Positions 542 to 15,593 of a stretch of 15,620 nt of DNA are shown one piece after another. The notes beneath the pieces are model-generated. The model ran no database searches. It saw only the letters and a program-made list of their open reading frames with translations, and had not been told where the DNA came from. Origin of the DNA: a virus. Lineage: Duplodnaviria > Heunggongvirae > Uroviricota > Caudoviricetes. Both the position numbers and the translations under genes were made by a program. Positions within the stretch are counted from its first letter, which is position 1. Each line of letters starts with the position of its first letter. The stretch lies in IMG/VR virus record IMGVR_UViG_2663762841_000005. One strand, 5' to 3'.

Positions 542-1579
542 TTAACGCTTATCCGCCACCAGTTTGAGCGCGTGTTCCAGCACATTAATGTCTGCACCCG
601 CTTTATGGGCATTTTCACTTAAATAACGCCGCCACTGCCGCGCGCCAGGAATACCCTGGAACAAGCCCAACATATGCCGGGTAATATGGCCGAGATACGT
701 CCCCTGGCTGAGTTCACGCTCAATGTACGGATACATGGCGCGCACTACCGCCACTGGATCGGCATCGGTATCCGAGGAACCAAAGATCTCCCGGTCTACC
801 GCCGCCAGAATACCCGGATTCTGATACGCCTCGCGCCCGACCATCACGCCATCCATATGTTGCAGGTGTGCTTTGGCCTCTTCCAGCGACTTGATACCAC
901 CGTTAATCGACATTGTCAGATGCGGAAAGTCACGCTTCAGTTGATACACACGCGGATAATCGAGCGGCGGGATTTCACGGTTTTCTTTCGGGCTTAACCC
1001 CGAAAGCCAGGCTTTACGTGCGTGGATGATAAACATCTCACACTCGCCTTTGCCGGAAACGGTGTTGATGAAATCGCAGAGAAATTCATAGCTGTCCTGG
1101 TCATCGATGCCAATACGCGTTTTCACCGTCACTGGAATCGACACCACATCGCGCATCGCTTTCACGCAGTCGGCAACCAGCTGCGCATTACCCATCAGAC
1201 ACGCACCAAACATGCCGTTCTGCACCCGGTCAGACGGGCAGCCGACATTCAGGTTGATCTCATCATATCCACGCGCTTCTGCCAGCTTCGCACACTGTGC
1301 CAGCGCCGCCGGATCGCTACCGCCGAGTTGCAACGCTACCGGATGTTCTTCTTCACTGTACGCCAGGTAATCACCTTTACCGTGAATAATCGCCCCTGTG
1401 GTCACCATTTCGGTATACAGCAACGTATTGCGGGAAAGCAGACGCAAGAAATAGCGGCAATGTCTGTCCGTCCAGTCGAGCATAGGAGCAATGCTAAACC
1501 GAGAACTCCAGTAAGCGCCAGTTTTTTCAGGCATCACGCTGGTTTGATTAGTTTTCTGTGTTTCAGGATTATCGTGCAT
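542..1579 (-). CDS. dusA: tRNA-dihydrouridine(20/20a) synthase DusA
   Basis: 345-aa ORF with recognisable DusA/YjbN sequence ([22 protein letters not shown]...LNVGCPS...IHARKAWL...). An alternative internal start (MPEKTG, residue 16) would give the 330-aa form. The 5' end of this gene is the known target of dusA-specific integrases. Confidence 0.93.
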
Positions 1580-1667: not shown

Positions 1668-2765
1668 ATGGCGTACTATAACATAGAGAAACGACTAAAA
1701 TCCGATGGCACACCACGCTATCGCTGTAATGTGATTATCAAAGAAAAAGGTGTTATCACTTACAGGGAAAGCAAAACATTCCCTAAACATGCTCATGCCA
1801 AAACATGGGGCGCACAGAAAGTGATGGAATTAGATCTATATGGCATTCCATCATCAAATGCTGTTGACGGACTTACAGTCCGTGACTTACTACACAAATA
1901 TTTAAATGACCCAAATGCCGGAGGTAAAGCAGGCCGTACTAAAAGATATGTGCTGGAACTGCTTATGGATAGTGACATCTCCGCGATCAAACTATCTGAA
2001 CTGACAGAAAATGACGTAATTGAACATTGCAGGCTAAGAAACAACGCTGGTGCAGGCCCAGCAACAGTCAGCCACGATGTTAGTTATCTTGGCAGTGTTC
2101 TGGATGCGGCAAAACCTGTATACGGAATCAATTACACATCAAACCCGGCGAAAAGCGCTCGTCCATATCTACTTAAACTCGGTTTGATTGGTAAATCAAA
2201 CCGTCGTAATCGTAGACCAGCATCTGATGAACTGAACATGCTCATTGAAGGCCTTCAACAACGATCTACTCATAAATGCTCAAAAATTCCGTTCGTTGAT
2301 ATCCTCAAATTTTCTGTGTGGTCCTGTATGCGAATCGGAGAAGTATGCCGGTTACGATGGGAAGATCTCGACCAGGAACAAAAATCTATACTAGTAAGAG
2401 ACAGGAAAGATCCACGTAAAAAGGAAGGCAACCATATGAAAGTTGCCTTGCTTGGGGAAGCCTGGGATATCGTCCAGCGACAACCCAAAAAATCAGAATT
2501 CATTTTTCCATATAACAGCACTTCTGTTACCGCAGGATTTCAGAGGGTAAGAAGCAAATTAGGTATTAAAGATCTGAGATACCATGATTTGCGTAGAGAA
2601 GGGGCAAGTCGCTTATTTGAGGCTGGTTTTAGTATTGAGGAAGTCGCTCAGGTTACAGGGCATCGTTCATTAAACGTGCTATGGCAGGTATATACCGAAC
2701 TGTATCCGAAATCTTTACATAATCGTTTTGAAGAACTCCAAAGGAGCAGAAATAAGACCTCTTGA
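1668..2765 (+). CDS. Tyrosine-type site-specific integrase (dusA-associated integrase family candidate)
   Basis: 365-aa ORF with a C-terminal tyrosine recombinase catalytic region (RIGEV...R, HDLRREG, GHRSLNVLWQVYTELY with the candidate catalytic Tyr). It is the first island gene, directly adjacent to and transcribed away from the dusA 5' end. Confidence 0.9.
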   Translation: MAYYNIEKRLKSDGTPRYRCNVIIKEKGVITYRESKTFPKHAHAKTWGAQKVMELDLYGIPSSNAVDGLTVRDLLHKYLNDPNAGGKAGRTKRYVLELLMDSDISAIKLSELTENDVIEHCRLRNNAGAGPATVSHDVSYLGSVLDAAKPVYGINYTSNPAKSARPYLLKLGLIGKSNRRNRRPASDELNMLIEGLQQRSTHKCSKIPFVDILKFSVWSCMRIGEVCRLRWEDLDQEQKSILVRDRKDPRKKEGNHMKVALLGEAWDIVQRQPKKSEFIFPYNSTSVTAGFQRVRSKLGIKDLRYHDLRREGASRLFEAGFSIEEVAQVTGHRSLNVLWQVYTELYPKSLHNRFEELQRSRNKTS

Positions 2766-2813
2766 CACTGTTTATCCATACAGTTAAAAATAATACTGTA
2801 TACAAATACAGTG
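2762..2813 (+). promoter_or_regulatory. SOS-regulated promoter: -35 TTGACA (2762-2767), -10-like TAAAAA (2785-2790), LexA box TACTGTATACAAATACAGTG (2794-2813)
   Basis: CTGT-N8-ACAG at 2796-2811 is a perfect match to the LexA-box core and sits just downstream of the -10 and upstream of the DinI-like gene (SD AGGGGA at 2815-2820, ATG at 2826). Confidence 0.75.
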
Positions 2814-2825
2814 TAGGGGACTTTT

Positions 2826-3074
2826 ATGCGTATTGAAATCTGCATAGCCAAAGAAAAAATGACTAAAATGCCAACCGGTGCTGTGGATGCGTTAAAGGAA
2901 GAATTAACCCGACGCATCAGTAAACGTTATGACGATGTAGAAGTGATCGTAAAAGCCACCAGCAACGATGGCCTTTCTGTTACGCGCACCGCTGATAAAG
3001 ATTCAGCTAAAACTTTTGTTCAGGAGACTCTGAAAGATACCTGGGAGTCTGCTGACGAGTGGTTTGTTCATTAA
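2826..3074 (+). CDS. DinI-family DNA damage-inducible protein (prophage DinI homologue)
   Basis: 82-aa [14 protein letters not shown]...[11 protein letters not shown], with DinI-like length, N-terminus (MRIE..IAK) and C-terminal TWESAD-WF motif; preceded by a LexA box. Confidence 0.8.
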
Positions 3075-3106
3075 GTTCATCATCTCTGGACACCATTCAC
3101 TTGTAT

Positions 3107-3135
3107 TGACTTTAAGATCATTAAATTGTAATAAT
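3107..3135 (+). promoter_or_regulatory. Sigma-70-like promoter (-35 TTGACT 3107-3112, 17-bp spacer, -10 AATAAT 3130-3135) driving the ncRNA-TM-RT module
   Basis: 5/6 matches in both hexamers with optimal spacing; the predicted transcription start (about 3142-3145) coincides with the first arm (a1) of the 12-nt inverted repeat. Confidence 0.4.
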
Positions 3136-3140
3136 TCAAA

Positions 3141-3277
3141 GGGATGGGGCAGGTTTTTCCTCTTGCGCATGCAAGGGCGGCTCTGATAATGAACAGTAAT
3201 ATTTTACTGTTGAGCTTATGCTCACTGATCCTGCCGGGCAGGATGTTCAACGGTTCCAATATATCCTGCCCCTTCCG
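3141..3277 (+). ncRNA. Candidate structured non-coding RNA upstream of the TM-RT gene pair (retron msr-msd-like or DRT-type ncRNA); boundaries approximate
   Basis: No ORF; flanked by an inverted repeat GGATGGGGCAGG (3142-3153) / CCTGCCCCTTCC (3265-3276), 12 nt with one mismatch. Internal hairpins: CTTGC-GCAT-GCAAG (3162-3175), CAGTAA-TATT-TTACTG (3194-3209), TGAGC-TTAT-GCTCA (3211-3224), and the 17-bp palindrome ATCCTGCCGGGCAGGAT (3228-3244). Sits between a promoter and the TM/RT genes. Confidence 0.35.
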
Positions 3278-3296
3278 CTTTTAAAAAGGATCTTTT

Positions 3297-3848
3297 ATGC
3301 ATGACAATATTTGGTTTACATATAAAGCACGTATCCAAGCGCACCATCGACTAGAATGGCTTGAAAAACACTCTCAATTTATCCTCGTTTGGTATGCTAT
3401 ATTGAGTGCGGTACTTTCAATTGTAACGTTGCGATTTCCAAAGGTTCTAGGAGATAATACAGATGTCGTTGCGGCGATACTTTCAGTGGCTCTACTGGGT
3501 ATTTCTCTGATCGTATCTAACCTAGATTTTCGTGGTCGAGCAATAGCCATGAGAAGGAATTATATTGCACTACAGCGACTCTATTTTGACATTACCACCA
3601 GTCAACAGTTATCTCTTGAACAGAAAGAAAAATATTTTAATTTGCTCAATGAGGTTGAGAATCACCGTGACATAGATGATAAAATTTCAAGGGTAACTCA
3701 AGTTGGACTTAAGACGAGGATCCCCACACAAAAAGAAAAAATAATTGTTATTTTATGGATATTACTTCGAATATTTATTACTGCCGCACTTTATATACTC
3801 CCATTAATATATCTTTGGATTGACTATGACTGCAAGCAGAATTTTTAA
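3297..3848 (+). CDS. Small multi-TM membrane protein (2 N-terminal TM helices plus a C-terminal hydrophobic segment); candidate effector of the RT module, possibly SLATT-like
   Basis: 183-aa ORF, AT-rich, SD AAGGA 7 nt before the ATG. Hydrophobic stretches FILVWYAILSAVLSIVTL, VVAAILSVALLGISLIVSNL and IIVILWILLRIFITAALYILPLIYLWI. Its 3' end overlaps the RT start by 29 nt, suggesting translational coupling. The SLATT assignment is a guess from architecture. Confidence 0.65.
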   Translation: MHDNIWFTYKARIQAHHRLEWLEKHSQFILVWYAILSAVLSIVTLRFPKVLGDNTDVVAAILSVALLGISLIVSNLDFRGRAIAMRRNYIALQRLYFDITTSQQLSLEQKEKYFNLLNEVENHRDIDDKISRVTQVGLKTRIPTQKEKIIVILWILLRIFITAALYILPLIYLWIDYDCKQNF

Positions 3849-5196
3849 AAAGTCATTCTCGAAAAAAAATCTTCTAAAAGTATACTCTGAAAAAATCAAA
3901 GAATCAGGAGCGATTGGCATAGATCGGATTCGCCCATCAAAACTTGATTTGACAATAAAAAATGAGATCACTTTCATTTTTGAAAAGGTTAATTCTGGCA
4001 ATTACAAATTTACAGCATATAAAGAAAAATTAATATCTAAAGGCGCTAACTCTACACCCAGACAGATTTCCATACCAACTGCTAGGGACAGAATTACTCT
4101 TAGAGCTCTCTGTGAATGCCTTACGGAAATATATCCTAAGTCCAGATTAAAACTACCACATACAGTAATTGACTCATTGAAAGAAGCATTAAACAACAGT
4201 CTATATGCTGAATATGCAAAAATAGATCTTAAAAGTTTCTATCCTTCAATTGAACATAAATTGATAATTAATGCAATAAAAAATAAAATTAGAAAAAAAG
4301 AAATTAGACAGTTAATAACATCATCATTAATCGTGCCTACTGTAAGTGGAACCACAGGAAGCAAAGGTATCCCTAATAATACCAGAGGAGTACCTCAGGG
4401 ATTAGCGATATCAAACATTTTAGCTGAAATATCACTATCTAATTTCGATGATGAAATCAATAAAATGCATGACATATGGTACATGCGATACGTTGATGAC
4501 ATTCTTATTTTAACACCAAAATATCAAGCAACAAAAATAGCTTCTCATATCATTGATAAGCTTCAATCATTAAATTTAAACCCACATCCATTAAATGAAG
4601 AGAACTCAAAATCCAAAGTAGGCAGTTTGGATGAAAGTTTTAACTTTTTGGGATACCACATAGAAAATCGAGAATTATTGATAAAACATGAGAGCATTCT
4701 TAGATTTGAGTCATCCTTAGCAAAAATTTTTACTGCATATAGGCACGCTCTACTACAAGCTAAAAGTAAGCGTGATAAAGAACGAGCTGTTGCATATTGT
4801 CAGTGGAAACTAAATCTCAGAATTACGGGATGTGTGTTTGAAGGTAAACGATTGGGATGGGTATCGTACTTCTCACAAATAACCTCAACAGCTCAACTTC
4901 GCTCTGTTAATCATACTATCAATAATCTTATCCGCCGATTCGGCCTTTCATCAGAAATAAAACCAAAATCTTTGATTAAAACTTTCTATGAACTCCGCAG
5001 AGGTAGAGCGGAGACTTTTAAATACATACCTAACTTTGACAATCTACATATATCTCAGAAACGAGAACTTGTTTCTATGTGGATAGGTAAAGAGAAGGAA
5101 AAAAAACTTAGCAATAGTGAAATAGAGAGGAAGTTTAAATTTAAAATTGCGAAATCAGTAAAAGAGCTTGAAGAGGATATTTCAGGAATATCATAG
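3820..5196 (+). CDS. Reverse transcriptase (prokaryotic retron/Abi/UG-type, defence-associated candidate)
   Basis: 458-aa ORF with canonical RT motifs: motif A IDLKSFYPSI (Asp about residue 136), motif B' GVPQGLAISNILAEISL (about 190-206), motif C YVDD (residues 224-227, nt 4489-4500), motif E-like FLGY, plus a C-terminal extension of roughly 170 aa. A possible retron-like NN..A and ITG (region-7 VTG-like) are present, but the spacing differs from Ec86, so the family call is tentative. Confidence 0.9.
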   Translation: MTMTASRIFKKSFSKKNLLKVYSEKIKESGAIGIDRIRPSKLDLTIKNEITFIFEKVNSGNYKFTAYKEKLISKGANSTPRQISIPTARDRITLRALCECLTEIYPKSRLKLPHTVIDSLKEALNNSLYAEYAKIDLKSFYPSIEHKLIINAIKNKIRKKEIRQLITSSLIVPTVSGTTGSKGIPNNTRGVPQGLAISNILAEISLSNFDDEINKMHDIWYMRYVDDILILTPKYQATKIASHIIDKLQSLNLNPHPLNEENSKSKVGSLDESFNFLGYHIENRELLIKHESILRFESSLAKIFTAYRHALLQAKSKRDKERAVAYCQWKLNLRITGCVFEGKRLGWVSYFSQITSTAQLRSVNHTINNLIRRFGLSSEIKPKSLIKTFYELRRGRAETFKYIPNFDNLHISQKRELVSMWIGKEKEKKLSNSEIERKFKFKIAKSVKELEEDISGIS

Positions 5197-5250: not shown

Positions 5251-5667
5251 TCACAAACCAGCCGCAGTATCCTGCCATGGCAAGTTGCTGCGGCTTTTTA
5301 TGTTCAACGGATCAACAGCCAGATCAGAAGACACGCTACCCACGTTGTAAACGAACGAGTAAAGAGCGCCGCGCGTTGTTTCCGGTATATCGACTTTGAT
5401 GTACGGGTTAATTTGTCTGGCGACCGTGGCAAGGTCTTTATTCAGGAGGGCTTTGCATTCTGCTTCGGTATACGTTTTACCTAGCATGATGTCTTTTCCG
5501 GTGTGTCCGTAACATACAGTCCATACGCCAACGATATCTTTGTATGGTATGTAGCTGACACCTTCCAGGCCATCGTCACCACTTGGGCCAGTGATTAACA
5601 CTGATGCTATAGCAATTGCTCCGCCACCAATAGCAGCAGCAACTGCTTTTCGTAATGATGGAGGCAT
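5251..5667 (-). CDS. SAR endolysin (phage 21 R-type, T4-lysozyme-fold glycoside hydrolase), apparently 3'-truncated at the junction with the RT cassette
   Basis: N-terminal signal-anchor [27 protein letters not shown] followed by the lysozyme catalytic region ([26 protein letters not shown]...[15 protein letters not shown]). After about residue 110 (nt about 5340) the sequence loses lysozyme character and reads through the plus-strand terminator before stopping; full-length homologues are about 165 aa by my recollection. Its start overlaps the holin stop. Confidence 0.75.
5260..5300 (+). terminator. Rho-independent terminator of the RT operon (AGCCGCAG ... CTGCGGCT stem, then TTTTTAT)
   Basis: 8-bp perfect inverted repeat at 5260-5267 / 5288-5295 enclosing a palindromic TGCCATGGCA core, followed by a T-run at 5295-5299; about 65 nt downstream of the RT stop. 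Confidence 0.6.
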
Positions 5668-5882
5668 TATTCACCTCTTGCAGCCTTGCGCTTATCTTCT
5701 TTAATCTTGAAATAAAGGTTTGTCAGGTACGTCAGCAGGCCAAATACCAGGCTACCCAGCACACCTATTGCTGCCCACTGTGAGGGCGTGACTTTATCGA
5801 GCAGCTGTAAAAACCAGTAACCGGCACTACCTGCTGAGGTGCCATAGGCGACACCCGTTGTTAACTTATCCATGGATTTCAT
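5667..5882 (-). CDS. Phage 21 S-type pinholin (class II holin) with dual-start motif MKSMDK
   Basis: 71-aa product [29 protein letters not shown]...[13 protein letters not shown], closely resembling S21 (two TM helices, charged C-terminus, dual start Met1/Met4). SD GAGGTG lies upstream of the ATG at 5882. The track ORF 5667..5945 over-extends the N-terminus. Confidence 0.85.
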
Positions 5883-5949
5883 AACCCCACCTCGCAGATG
5901 CGGGTGCTGTGTAATGGAAATAAAAAGGCCACCTGACGTGGCCACCAGA

Positions 5950-7002
5950 TTATTTCCCCACCAGCTCGTTTATCTCTTTCACTGTCTGGTTAAACCGCTC
6001 TGACTCAAGCTCAACACCTAAGGCCCGACGCCCCAGCGCCATTGCTGCTTTTATTGTGGAACCGGATCCCATAAAAAAATCAGCAACCAGATCACCAGGT
6101 CGACTACTGGCATTGATTATTTGCCTGAGCATATCCGCCGGTTTCTCACACGGATGTTTACCCGGGTAGAACTGAACGGGTTTATGCATCCAGACATCGG
6201 TATAAGGCACGGAGACTGATACGGAGAAATAGCGCCGGAGAGATTTAAACTCATCCAGCAATTCAGAATATTTGCGATTCAGTGAATCATAAGATGCCAC
6301 CAGCTGGTGGTGTGGTTGTTCCAGTTGTTGTTCCTGAAACTTCTCTGCCGCTATACGGGAAAACAGTGCCTGTAACTTCCGATAGTCAGCCTCATTCGGC
6401 AACTGCCACTGACTGGCACCAAACCAGTGGGAAACCATATTTTTCTTACCTGTGGCTTCGGCAATTTGTTTTGCCGTTATACCCAGTTCGGCACGAGCAT
6501 CCCTGAAATACGATATCAGCGGTGCCATTATGTGCTGTTTGAGTTCCCTTTCTTTTGCCGCATAGCCGTCACTTTTGCCGCGATATGGCCCCTGGTAATG
6601 TTCAGCAAACAGAACGCGCTCTGTGGCAGGAAAATATGCGCGCAGACTTTCTTTATTACACCCATTCCAACGTCCGGACGGCTTCGCCCAGATGATATGG
6701 TTAAGCACGTTGAAACGTTCACGCATCATGATCTCAATATCAGATGCCAGGCGATGCCCACAGAACAGGTAAAGGCTTCCGGCAGGTTTTAACACCCGCC
6801 AGAACTGGGCCAGACAGTGGTCCAGCCACTTAAGGTAATCTTCGTCCCCTTTCCACTGATTGTCCCAGCCGTTGGGTTTCACCTTGAAGTACGGCGGATC
6901 GGTAACAATCAGGTCAATGGAATCATCAGGCAGGGACTGAATAAAATGCAGGCAATCAGCGTTGATTAAATCAACACTGTTTATTTTTACAGTATTTTTC
7001 AT
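5950..7002 (-). CDS. DNA methyltransferase (N6-adenine/N4-cytosine family, DPPY motif), orphan
   Basis: 350-aa ORF with motif IV TDPPYF near the N-terminus and a C-terminal AdoMet-binding region (DFFMGSGST). No adjacent restriction endonuclease gene is visible. Confidence 0.85.
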
Positions 7003-7592: not shown

Positions 7593-8759
7593 ATGGAATT
7601 GACCAAAAAAATGAGCAAAGCAAGCATACGCCACGTAATCGTTCATGAGCTCTTAAAAGAATCTAATAAAGACTTCGATCACTCCAAACCATACAATCTT
7701 CGTGATACAGAACTAGATAAAACAAATGATATAGTAAAAAAATTAGTAGACGGTGTTATTGATTTGTATGGTTCAAAAGGGAACTCAGCGCATTATGGTG
7801 TTTTTATTAAAAATAAAACAAAGCAAGGCCCTATACCAGAACTATTTCATAAATACTCTTTAGTTCAACAATCTGTTTCAAGTGATTTCATTGAATTATC
7901 GAAGGAAGTTATGAAACAAATGTATAAATCTGCTCAAGAGCAGATTTGGGCTTCTGGAGGATATGTTGTTTTTACTGATTATATTTTATCTGGTTTCCGT
8001 TATCTATTGGTTACAATGATCAAAAAAACTAATGGCGTAACTATTAGTGAAAATTTAGAGCCAGAGGAAATGATTCACTTAGAACTTGGTAATATTAACC
8101 AAGCAGCAAAAATAAATTTCAGATATTATGAAGAATACCAAAAAGCAGATGACTTAAAAAAAACAGACTTAAGTTATCTAAGCTTTATAAGCAAAACTAC
8201 GGGACAGTCAGCGGCAGCATATTTTATAGCAGCATTAGGATGTGACAAGGGGATTGCTTCAGCAGGTGCAACCCGTAAGTTACCAGATGAAATAAGGCGT
8301 TTCTTTAAGAAAGAACCTCTTTTAAAAAATCAAGCAGAGTCATTTAGAAATGATGTTATCAAATACTTAGAAAAGCAATTTGACAACGAGCACTCTGCAA
8401 GGCTTTCTGATATCGAATCGCTTGCTTCAGGCCATATGTCCTATTTAAAAGAGGAAGAAAAAACAGAACTTGTTGATAAATTAATGAAACACCTCAATAG
8501 TGAGGAAGTCAGAATCCCATCAGAGTTCGTAATCAATAAAAACTCCTTAGATAAAATCAGCAATGTGATATATAAAACCCCATCATTGAGCTTTCACTTC
8601 GACAAGGATTTACTCGGTGTCACAACTGATGCTAAAATATATTATGATGACGAAAACCAAAGCCTAACATTTAATAATTTGCCTGTTGAAGCATTAACTA
8701 AGATAAGAAGAGCGTTGAAAGAAACTGATAACCCAAGTAATGAAGAAGATAAAGAATGA
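7593..8759 (+). CDS. Nucleoid-associated protein NdpA/YejK-family homologue (divergent, AT-rich)
   Basis: 388-aa ORF with YejK-like blocks: IRHVIVHELLK near the N-terminus, GGYVVFTDYILSGFRYLLVTMIKKTNGVTISENLEPEEMIHLELGNINQAAKIN, and YLSFISKTTGQSAAAYFIAALGCDKG. The probable true start is the ATG at 7611 (MSKASIRHV...), which aligns with the YejK N-terminus; 7593 is the longest ORF. Its stop overlaps the start of the next gene (ATGA). Confidence 0.75.
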   Translation: MELTKKMSKASIRHVIVHELLKESNKDFDHSKPYNLRDTELDKTNDIVKKLVDGVIDLYGSKGNSAHYGVFIKNKTKQGPIPELFHKYSLVQQSVSSDFIELSKEVMKQMYKSAQEQIWASGGYVVFTDYILSGFRYLLVTMIKKTNGVTISENLEPEEMIHLELGNINQAAKINFRYYEEYQKADDLKKTDLSYLSFISKTTGQSAAAYFIAALGCDKGIASAGATRKLPDEIRRFFKKEPLLKNQAESFRNDVIKYLEKQFDNEHSARLSDIESLASGHMSYLKEEEKTELVDKLMKHLNSEEVRIPSEFVINKNSLDKISNVIYKTPSLSFHFDKDLLGVTTDAKIYYDDENQSLTFNNLPVEALTKIRRALKETDNPSNEEDKE

Positions 8760-9982
8760 ATGATTTTAGTATAATAGTTAATCTGTATAGATTATCAAGC
8801 TATCCTCATTTTGACGGGGCTAAGTTTTCTGCGCGTATAGCTTATAATGCAGACGTAAAATCATTGTTCAAAAGAATTTTGAACCCTACTTTTCAAGCTG
8901 GTACAGCTGACGAAATAGAGGTGGATGGTCATTTAATTTATGATTATGAAGACTTTCCTGAAAAGGGAAATTTTCTTACATACTCGTTTAAAATTTCACA
9001 AGGAAGTGCGAATCGTTTTTATAAAAATAAAAACGAGTTTGTAAAAATAAACACGCTCAAGAAAGGCATAATGCCAGAGTATTTCTATATTATAGAGGAT
9101 GATTTCTATTCATTAGAAACACCAAAACCTTCTTATATCCAAAAAATTGAGGACATTTGTGAGCTAATCAATGCTCTTTCCATGCTTGCTCATTTCCATG
9201 ATATAAAAAAAGATAGCAAAGGTACATTTTATCGTTTAGTCTTTATTTTAAACTCAGAGTCTAAATCTTCTTCTGCTGTAATTGAAACAAATATTACAGA
9301 AGAAATTTTTAATGATAAAACAGTAAATACTCAGTTAGTTAAAACATTAGTAAGTAGTGAAGCTACTACTGATGCCCATCACATTGAAAAGATTAACACT
9401 TTCAGAAACACAGTTATTGAGTATGTTAATAAAAATGGAAATTCCTTTGTCGAGTTAATTAACAAGTGGGATTTCATATGCGAACTTTATACGAACAACT
9501 TAGCTGCTTATATGTCGGCATTTTCTTTTCATAAAGCAAGGAAAGAAGTTGTTGATGCTGAACTCGATTACTCAGAAAAACTGTCAAAAATAATTTCAGA
9601 AATTTCTAACAAAGCTCTTGCAATACCTATTTCACTAGCTGGTTCAATTGCTATTTTCAAATTAACAACAAAAGCTGATTGGATTATTGCTTTAATTGGA
9701 TTGATTATCACAGCAATAATAACATCTGCAATGATTGTGTCACAAAAAAAACAACTTGCTCGTATTTCACACTCTAAAGAAATACTTTTTGGACAATTAA
9801 GATATAGAATAAAGGATGACACCAGCGATCTTAAAGAGAGCTTAGAAGAGGCTATTAAAAAATTAAATGACAATGAGGATTTTTGTCATAAGGTGCTTGA
9901 CAGTTTATTATCACTAGCATGGATGCCTACATTCATAGGCATCATCGGTATTTTATTTAAATTAATGCCAAATATTACTTGA
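8756..9982 (+). CDS. Hypothetical protein with soluble N-terminal domain and three C-terminal TM helices; candidate membrane effector partner of the NdpA-like protein
   Basis: 408-aa ORF, AT-rich, translationally coupled to the upstream gene (4-bp overlap). Predicted TM segments at about residues 287-302, 309-327 and 383-403 (nt about 9614-9964). No recognisable catalytic motifs. Its 3' end overlaps the 3' end of the convergent Q gene by 8 bp. Confidence 0.7.
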   Translation: MNDFSIIVNLYRLSSYPHFDGAKFSARIAYNADVKSLFKRILNPTFQAGTADEIEVDGHLIYDYEDFPEKGNFLTYSFKISQGSANRFYKNKNEFVKINTLKKGIMPEYFYIIEDDFYSLETPKPSYIQKIEDICELINALSMLAHFHDIKKDSKGTFYRLVFILNSESKSSSAVIETNITEEIFNDKTVNTQLVKTLVSSEATTDAHHIEKINTFRNTVIEYVNKNGNSFVELINKWDFICELYTNNLAAYMSAFSFHKARKEVVDAELDYSEKLSKIISEISNKALAIPISLAGSIAIFKLTTKADWIIALIGLIITAIITSAMIVSQKKQLARISHSKEILFGQLRYRIKDDTSDLKESLEEAIKKLNDNEDFCHKVLDSLLSLAWMPTFIGIIGILFKLMPNIT

Positions 9983-15055: not shown

Positions 15056-15593
15056 GACGATGCCCTCCGCTGATATTCAGGAGACGGTGAATATGAAAAT
15101 TAGCCTTATCCGCCAGACGAATACGTTCAGCCTGCAAGTTAAGAAGGGTTTCTACCAGAACTTGATGCGCCTGCGGATCCGAAAGAGTTACCTTGCGCAG
15201 AGCACGTAGTGCAGTTGTTACATAACTGAGTTTATGTAAGTCTTCATCATTCAGACGAGTGAGGGCTGGGACAGTAGCCATGATGGCAGCCTCCGATAAC
15301 AGTGAATTACCTTCACCACCGGAAACGCCAATTTCGCTGGTGGTGAACTGAACGGGGTTGGCGTAACCGGCGTTATCGGAAACCGGCGCACCTTTCGGTG
15401 CCCCCGTCCAGCCCACCATAATTTGGGTGTGCACAGACGCAGACGATAAAAAAGACGCTGGCGCGTCATATATCGCCGATAACATTTCCAGGACGCCAAT
15501 CCCGGCACCCGCTTTATAAGGTGCCTGAACAGTGTAACGTCCCGGAATGGCAGAATCAATGTGCTGGTGGTCCTTCACACTCAACAAAATCAC
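15048..15593 (-). CDS. Hypothetical phage protein (181 aa); start may lie nearer the window edge
   Basis: Longest ORF in the region; overlaps the next gene by 8 bp. No family recognised; an alternative-frame ORF (15251..15559) is judged spurious. Confidence 0.4.
   Translation of the reverse strand: MILLSVKDHQHIDSAIPGRYTVQAPYKAGAGIGVLEMLSAIYDAPASFLSSASVHTQIMVGWTGAPKGAPVSDNAGYANPVQFTTSEIGVSGGEGNSLLSEAAIMATVPALTRLNDEDLHKLSYVTTALRALRKVTLSDPQAHQVLVETLLNLQAERIRLADKANFHIHRLLNISGGHRHA

Follow-up and report, generated by a model that had tools for sequence, protein, structure and literature searches.

An intergenic RNA encoded upstream of SLATT and UG17 reverse transcriptase genes in a dusA-integrated prophage is very probably the template RNA of a DRT10 anti-phage system

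Introduction

What does the hairpin-rich, non-coding segment encode that precedes a reverse transcriptase (RT) gene in the Caudoviricetes record IMGVR_UViG_2663762841_000005 of IMG/VR? The DNA analysed is a single stretch of 15,620 nt, hereafter the window, to which all coordinates refer. An earlier reading, made from the sequence alone, had described a 12-nt inverted repeat around four short hairpins and proposed that the segment is either the a1/a2-bounded msr-msd of a retron or an RNA of DRT type, serving as template or regulator; a protein operator was named as an alternative.

The combination of a UG17 RT, a SLATT protein and an upstream non-coding RNA (ncRNA) has been described in two preprints as the DRT10 defence system (PMC12632851; 10.64898/2026.04.29.721553). 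In Eco3DRT10 a 137-nt RNA, whose gene lies upstream of SLATT, is bound by the RT (Tang et al. 2025, PMC12632851), and the published layout of the DRT10 ncRNA is one large stem-loop with four smaller ones. The RT primes from its C-terminal Ser456 and not from an RNA 2'-OH, the resulting cDNA being protein-linked and RNase-insensitive (PMC12632851). Its template is the 9-nt CAAUGAUUC (segments A-B), which lies in a 20-nt loop after stem-loop SL5 and is repeatedly copied; in each round the DNA re-aligns on a downstream CAAU (segment A'), giving kilobase-length (GAATCATTG)n single-stranded DNA (PMC12632851). Twenty loop positions were mutated in that study, where the loop sequence dictates the cDNA sequence, and a U110A change is tolerated with the product changing accordingly (PMC12632851). 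SL5 is needed for repeat synthesis, in that scrambling it abolishes the repeat products, and has been proposed to act as the template boundary (PMC12632851). The UG17-A system of Escherichia sp. E3659 has a 7-nt repeat, a basal stem essential for RNA accumulation and its own RNA promoter (Sanchez-Nieto et al. 2026, 10.64898/2026.04.29.721553). Phage defence requiring the RNA, SLATT and active RT has been shown for Eco1-3DRT10 and the E3659 system, and control of the SLATT membrane effector has tentatively been attributed to the repeat DNA. The DRT10 RT adds DNA repeats in the style of telomerase and has been proposed to be a relative of telomerase's ancestor.

We report here that positions 3142-3278 (plus strand) very probably encode an ncRNA that is copied in the style of telomerase and belongs to a DRT10 (UG17) anti-phage system, the carrier being a prophage integrated at dusA.

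Results

Gene neighbourhood of the RNA element

The window represents a prophage integrated beside dusA, and the genes around the RNA element are arranged as follows:

542-1579, minus strand: dusA
1668-2765, plus strand: tyrosine integrase gene
2826-3074, plus strand: DinI-like gene
3075-3296: intergenic region with the RNA element
3297-3848, plus strand: SLATT_5 two-transmembrane effector gene, with ribosome-binding site AGGA at 3287-3290
3826-5196, plus strand: UG17/DRT10 reverse transcriptase gene (PADLOC RT_UG17)

The SLATT gene matches Pfam SLATT_5 (1.3e-28) and PADLOC RTasSLATT (1.5e-56), and is overlapped by the 5' end of the RT gene over 23 nt. The RT matches PADLOC RT_UG17 across the entire profile (positions 1-429 of 429; 1.2e-158), with Drt3a as the second-best family (2.6e-37). 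Its length is 456 aa when read from the ATG at 3826, or 458 aa from the TTG at 3820, and its C-terminus reads ...ISGIS. In an alignment of 15 RT homologs both the YVDD motif (Y222 V223 D224 D225) and the C-terminal Ser456 are invariant. An open reading frame (ORF) abuts the RT gene upstream in nearly all homologous loci.

In every E. coli context examined, the RNA is directly preceded by a DinI-like gene, whether intact or decayed (2826-3074 in the window; gene or remnant at 3759-3978, 2329-2439 and 1-34 of loci L045, L047 and L083, respectively). E. coli prophages with the DinI-RNA cassette occupy varied chromosomal sites, beside dusA, yecD or prfC, and DinI, RNA, SLATT and RT seem to travel as a set at the prophage end. 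Directly past the RT gene, 5251-7002 (minus strand) holds lysozyme-like (138 aa), holin-like (92 aa) and DNA methyltransferase-like (350 aa) ORFs. E. coli AR434 is 100% identical to the window over 3075-5196 and has tail-fibre and decayed phage genes between the RT and the lysis/methylase genes; the prophage backbone therefore differs downstream of the cassette.

Further along, 7593-9982 (plus strand) contains two overlapping, apparently co-transcribed genes on the strand opposite to the flanking phage genes. They encode a 388-aa NA37 nucleoid-associated protein (Pfam 5e-50, phrog_3767) and a 408-aa protein (phrog_5023) with putative hydrophobic C-terminal segments. Neither gene was matched by PADLOC; the pair looks like a prophage accessory ('moron') cassette and is possibly a defence candidate. 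At 15336-15524 (minus strand) Rfam models identify a C4 antisense RNA (82.8 bits) adjoining an isrK Hfq-binding RNA (63.7 bits), which together are a P1/P7-type immunity/antirepressor control module of the prophage.

Fold of the RNA in the window

The architectural claims of the sequence-only reading held up on re-examination. A repeat search recovered the 12-nt inverted repeat, GGATGGGGCAGG at 3142-3153 and CCTGCCCCTTCC at 3265-3276, with 11 of 12 positions complementary. Inside it lie the four short hairpins at 3160-3177, 3192-3211, 3212-3223 and 3228-3244, the last of which is the 17-nt palindrome ATCCTGCCGGGCAGGAT, and the element GGCAGG/CCTGCC occurs in the four copies described (3148-3153, 3230-3235, 3237-3242 and 3265-3270). 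RNA folding, which had been suggested as a check, gave a minimum free energy (MFE) structure made of the closing stem and the same four hairpins. The elements of the RNA, named after the published stem-loops, are:

3142-3278, plus strand: putative DRT10 (UG17) ncRNA, about 137 nt, its ends placed by Eco3DRT10 numbering
3142-3153, plus strand: closing stem SL1 (P1), 5' arm, GGAUGGGGCAGG
3158-3180, plus strand: SL2 hairpin, core stem 3160-3166 / 3171-3177, with two invariant U-G pairs
3181-3191, plus strand: single-stranded junction between SL2 and SL3, CUCUGAUAAUG, of near-invariant columns
3192-3211, plus strand: SL3 hairpin, AACAGUAA / UUACUGUU
3212-3223, plus strand: SL4 hairpin, GAGC-UUAU-GCUC
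3228-3244, plus strand: SL5 hairpin, formed by the 17-nt palindrome, immediately before the template loop
3245-3264, plus strand: template loop, 20 nt, GUUCAACGGUUCCAAUAUAU
3265-3276, plus strand: closing stem SL1 (P1), 3' arm, CCUGCCCCUUCC

By homology with Eco3DRT10, SL5 would be the template-boundary stem-loop. The MFE structure of 3130-3300 has an energy of -59 kcal/mol (z = -3.99), which none of 200 shuffled sequences attained, and the plus strand folds better than the minus strand (-57.2 versus -51.4 kcal/mol). The inverted repeat taken alone is only modestly unusual, since an equally good one arises in 43 of 1000 dinucleotide shuffles of 3075-3300; the decisive evidence therefore comes from conservation and covariation in homologous loci.

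The MFE fold also contains a pairing between the junction and the template (3179-3185 / 3251-3257), which was rejected because it performs no better than shuffles. The junction CUCUGAUAAUG itself is almost invariant from E. coli to Bordetella, exceeding most of the stems in conservation; our guess is that it is an RT contact site.

Conservation and covariation across homologous loci

We collected 44 genomic loci that encode relatives of the RT. Wherever the RT is at least 50% identical, an nhmmer homolog of 3136-3285 lies directly upstream of SLATT (27 of 27 loci, from Xenorhabdus, Photorhabdus, Buttiauxella, Pseudomonas, Stutzerimonas, Stenotrophomonas and Bordetella). Structure was tested on an alignment of 28 sequences, from which RNAalifold derived the same five helices. 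Standard base pairs occupy 97.7% of the cells, compared with 48-57% when the partners are slid by 1-3 columns; 17 of the 34 pairs are changed on both sides (shuffled mean 10.9), and compensatory cells number 82 (shuffled mean 23.8). The observed pairing and covariation values were reached in 0 of 500 shuffles.

Compensatory pairs are present in every helix. In the closing stem SL1, 9 of 11 pairs change on both sides, and compensatory changes are found in two pairs of SL2 (99% of cells paired), three of the six pairs of SL3 (100% paired) and two of the four pairs of SL4. The long, 7-bp form of SL5 is confined to E. coli and Xenorhabdus, the other homologs having 4-5 bp. The structure belongs to the plus-strand RNA, since the invariant U-G pairs of SL2 would be A-C mismatches on the opposite strand. 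The proposal of a structured RNA had predicted covariation and conserved repeats at homologous RT loci; both were found, with the five-helix fold kept among the 27 loci.

A covariance model built from the alignment has a single match in the window (3134-3287, plus strand, 130 bits). Among 35 RT-encoding prophage contigs of IMG/VR, it recognises the RNA in 25. It detected no RNA at alphaproteobacterial UG17 loci, where the RT is 31-35% identical, in agreement with the published statement that covariance models work only within subtypes.

Promoter, RNA ends and expression

A strong promoter precedes the RNA:

3106-3135, plus strand: sigma-70 promoter of the ncRNA, -35 TTGACT at 3106-3111, 18-nt spacer, extended -10 TGtAATAAT at 3127-3135 (AATAAT at 3130-3135)

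It matches the consensus at 10 of 12 positions, with a TG before the -10 hexamer, and is the sigma-70-like promoter named in the sequence-only reading, except that it begins at 3106 and not 3107. From its position, transcription is likely to start at about 3142, where the repeat arm begins, as that reading had proposed. The promoter is conserved in Xenorhabdus, and in most homologs a hexamer resembling a -10 box precedes the closing stem by 8-9 nt. The 5' and 3' ends at 3142 and 3278 were obtained by transferring the numbering of the Eco3DRT10 study (U110, C116, A117, U119; A = 107-110, A' = 116-119), which would place nt 1 at 3142 and nt 137 at 3278, one base off the coordinates given earlier for the element.

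Promoter 3106-3135 probably drives the whole operon as well. In the window the SLATT start codon lies about 19 nt past the RNA, and in 26 of the 28 aligned sequences it is 14-29 nt past the closing stem (none was found within 100 nt in the other two). This distance leaves no room for a separate SLATT promoter, so that read-through from the ncRNA promoter is the most likely source of SLATT and RT expression. A discrete RNA could be released from such a transcript by processing, or by partial termination at the closing stem and the UUUU tract at 3279-3282. This tract begins two bases past the closing stem, and homologs also have T-rich runs there. Stem and tract together may constitute a leaky terminator that gives the RNA a discrete 3' end; a terminator scan made no call at 3279-3282 because the 'loop' would be the entire RNA.

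Template loop and predicted product

Two segments of the loop correspond to the published A-B-A' arrangement:

3248-3256, plus strand: predicted template A-B, CAACGGUUC, with A = CAA[C] (3248-3251) and B = GGUUC (3252-3256)
3257-3260, plus strand: predicted realignment segment A', CAAU

At the same coordinates the window has CAACGGUUC followed by CAAU where Eco3DRT10 has CAAUGAUUC followed by CAAU, the differences being C110 for U110 and G112 for A112. By analogy, the cDNA repeat unit of the window allele is predicted to be 5'-GAACCGTTG-3'. The identity between A and A' spans 3 nt in the window allele, compared with 4 nt in Eco3; the dG copied from C110 could wobble with U119 on re-alignment, a dG-rU pair providing the fourth position.

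Across homologs the first four loop bases, GUUC, are invariant, and a (U)CAA...(U)CAA repeat occupies a conserved loop position in 25 of 28 sequences and likewise in the IMG/VR loci. A 3-nt direct repeat is expected by chance in a 20-nt loop and carries weight only through this conserved position. Neither the sequence nor the length of segment B is fixed, and the period ranges from 9 to 11 among homologs. CAA repeats at a fixed position around a variable B fit the A-B-A' rule.

The repeat unit of the window allele is a prediction because the A/A' match spans 3 nt and because a competing 4-nt repeat is present, GUUC (3245-3248)...GUUC (3253-3256), with a period of 8. C110 and G112 reduce the A/A' match to CAA plus a wobble and create GUUC-AACG-GUUC abutting SL5, which raises the idea that the allele makes an 8-nt repeat (CGTTGAAC), or mixed and imprecise repeats, in place of the 9-nt unit. 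We consider this outcome unlikely. Were it true, natural variation of the template would adjust the DNA signal that SLATT, or phage counter-defences, perceive.

Relation to Eco3DRT10 and distribution in E. coli

The identity of the Eco3DRT10 RNA was deduced from the published motif, residue numbering and protein description, and loci of the Eco3 type were found in E. coli genomes with a query in which the window RNA carried the published template. This search returned E. coli loci with an exact CAATGATTC followed by CAAT. In the RNA region, one of them (strain 510016) departs from the window at just three positions, 3141, 3251 and 3253, two of which are in the template, and its RT is 98% identical to that of the window over 393 residues. 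The record of the Eco3DRT10 RT (OKX54664) has two additional N-terminal residues, its S458 being S456 of the paper (PMC12632851 supplement); the window RT matches this description in its length (458/456 aa) and terminal Ser. In strain 510016 the SLATT gene is split by an IS1A insertion (2662-3990 of locus L047), which suggests that the SLATT effector is inactivated in some lineages.

The locus is present in 188 of 5426 complete E. coli genomes, always on the chromosome, and the RefSeq entries of these 188 carrier genomes hold no annotation of the RNA. Over 3241-3272, 154 of the 188 match the window exactly, and the other 34 deviate at two positions; both of the two-position variants examined carry the Eco3 template. 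The window template thus appears to be the common allele in E. coli, and the experimentally studied allele the minority one. In Rfam, 3050-3350 had no match at the gathering score, and E-values up to 10 gave only two chance eukaryotic matches. The cassette had no match in the GenBank phage collection; IMG/VR prophage contigs do carry it.

Discussion

The locus combines the features that define DRT10: a UG17 RT with YVDD and a terminal Ser, a coupled SLATT_5 gene, and an upstream RNA with a closing stem, four stem-loops and the A-B-A' segments in position. Fold, conservation and covariation, synteny, family assignments, catalytic and priming residues and template position all come from the present analysis. 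Of the readings first offered for the segment, that of a DRT-type template RNA is borne out by the downstream SLATT_5 and UG17 RT genes, the covarying fold and the near-identity to the Eco3DRT10 ncRNA allele.

A retron would explain the repeat as a1/a2, with the RT making branched msDNA from the 2'-OH of a G beside the stem. An inverted repeat does bracket a structured non-coding region upstream of an RT, and several database entries call these RTs 'retron-type', but the RT is a UG17 enzyme (1.2e-158) with no retron RT model among its 25 best PADLOC hits, and a SLATT_5 partner gene sits between RNA and RT. The earlier suggestion to look for a branching G after the a1 arm turned up none adjoining the stem: the arm is followed by UUUUUCC, and the first G, at 3165, is inside the SL2 stem. 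The interior holds four short hairpins and an open loop instead of a long msd-like hairpin, and the published DRT10 cDNA is protein-linked, RNase-insensitive and Ser456-primed (PMC12632851). On RT clade, interior shape and protein priming, we judge the retron reading extremely improbable. The palindrome at 3228-3244 is perfect and could mark a protein operator, and an element placed as this one is, after a promoter and before the first gene, also forms a 5' leader, so that the region might be a purely cis-regulatory leader or attenuator for SLATT and RT, devoid of a template role. What homologs keep at the palindrome, however, is pairing and not sequence: a stem of 4-5 bp, in part U-G, under a loop whose length varies. 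The invariant U-G pairs in SL2 make sense only in plus-strand RNA, the strand that also folds better (by the energies given above), and the Eco3DRT10 RNA is bound by the RT, with its loop sequence dictating the cDNA (PMC12632851). The operator is thus unsupported, and a regulatory role of this kind in place of a template is very improbable.

A conformational switch would be compatible with the DRT10 template RNA, acting on top of it: pairing of 3236-3244 with 3263-3271 would enclose the template and toggle its availability. The mutually exclusive pairing proposed from the sequence is indeed possible in the window, where the alternative helix is a perfect 9 bp (100% complementary), the SL5 arms are direct-repeat copies (D1, D2) of the closing-stem arms, and the forced alternative fold is only about 3.3 kcal/mol worse. 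The part of the proposal that did not stand is selection for it. The alternative pairs make up about 2% of the ensemble compared with about 97% for SL1 plus SL5; across the 28 homologs 52.7% of the cells pair, as expected from shuffling (mean 53.2%), with one compensatory cell; and most homologs lack the extended SL5. We therefore hold such a switch to be improbable. The copies themselves (3147-3159 / 3236-3248 and 3228-3235 / 3263-3270, in which the SL5 arms equal the inner closing-stem arms) are seen only in E. coli and Xenorhabdus, other genera having a short TCCC/GGGA SL5, and perhaps arose by local duplication.

As a DRT10 ncRNA, the window RNA most closely resembles that of Eco3DRT10. 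The two share the operon order of promoter, ncRNA, SLATT and overlapping RT, the 137-nt layout of closing stem, four hairpins and 20-nt template loop past SL5, the A' segment CAAU, and the length and terminal Ser of the RT; E. coli loci with the Eco3DRT10 template are about 98% identical to the window. They differ in the repeat (GAATCATTG in Eco3DRT10, GAACCGTTG predicted for the window), in the A/A' match (4 nt, as against 3 nt and a possible G-U wobble) and in the additional period-8 GUUC...GUUC of the window allele. The UG17-A ncRNA of Escherichia sp. E3659 belongs to the same family, with the same subtype architecture of SLATT then RT in Pseudomonadota, and is likewise a structured RNA with a basal stem, its own promoter and a tandem-repeat cDNA; by its description it differs in being about 143 nt long with six stem-loops and a 7-nt repeat flanked by a trinucleotide motif. 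The DRT9 (UG28) ncRNA has a reportedly similar overall fold (PMC12632851) and also serves protein-primed, repetitive synthesis from a loop template, but there a poly-U template yields poly-dA, priming is from tyrosine, the enzyme is a hexamer and the A-B-A' pattern is absent.

With telomerase RNA and TERT, DRT10 shares a short, repeatedly copied template, a 5' boundary element (here SL5) and a 3' alignment segment (here A'). It differs in priming from a protein serine and not a chromosome end, in a far smaller RNA and RT, and in serving defence and not end maintenance; the DRT10 RNA is not a member of the telomerase RNA family. A retron msr-msd is similar in that a structured ncRNA, enclosed by an inverted repeat, precedes a bacterial defence RT; the RT clades differ, and DRT10 has protein priming and a repeat product and lacks a branching G or msd hairpin.

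The mechanism that we propose for the window locus is transferred from the two preprints, on close and on more distant homologs. The RNA would be transcribed from the promoter at 3106-3135 and fold as SL1 enclosing SL2-SL5 and the 20-nt single-stranded template loop. By analogy with Eco3DRT10, the RT encoded 550 nt downstream would bind this RNA, start DNA synthesis on its own C-terminal serine, and copy CAACGGUUC up to the boundary set by SL5. The nascent DNA would then unpair and its 3' end re-anneal to the downstream CAA(U) segment, after which the cycle would repeat as in telomerase. The predicted product, (GAACCGTTG)n, is a long single-stranded DNA that remains joined to the RT. For the binding of the RNA by the RT, priming from serine, the addition of repeats, the need for SLATT and the control of activation by host and phage factors, this scheme relies on the literature on these homologs, and each would apply here by analogy.

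The system was already known, having been described in 2025-2026, and the published picture is unchanged by our analysis. What is new is small: the window allele is common in E. coli, and its RNA has neither a RefSeq annotation nor an Rfam family. Annotation pipelines therefore see only a 'SLATT protein' and a 'reverse transcriptase' at such loci; searches with our alignment and covariance model would reveal the RNA in Enterobacterales, Pseudomonas, Stenotrophomonas and Bordetella. Because E. coli naturally carries two template alleles, the influence of template sequence on the system could readily be tested.
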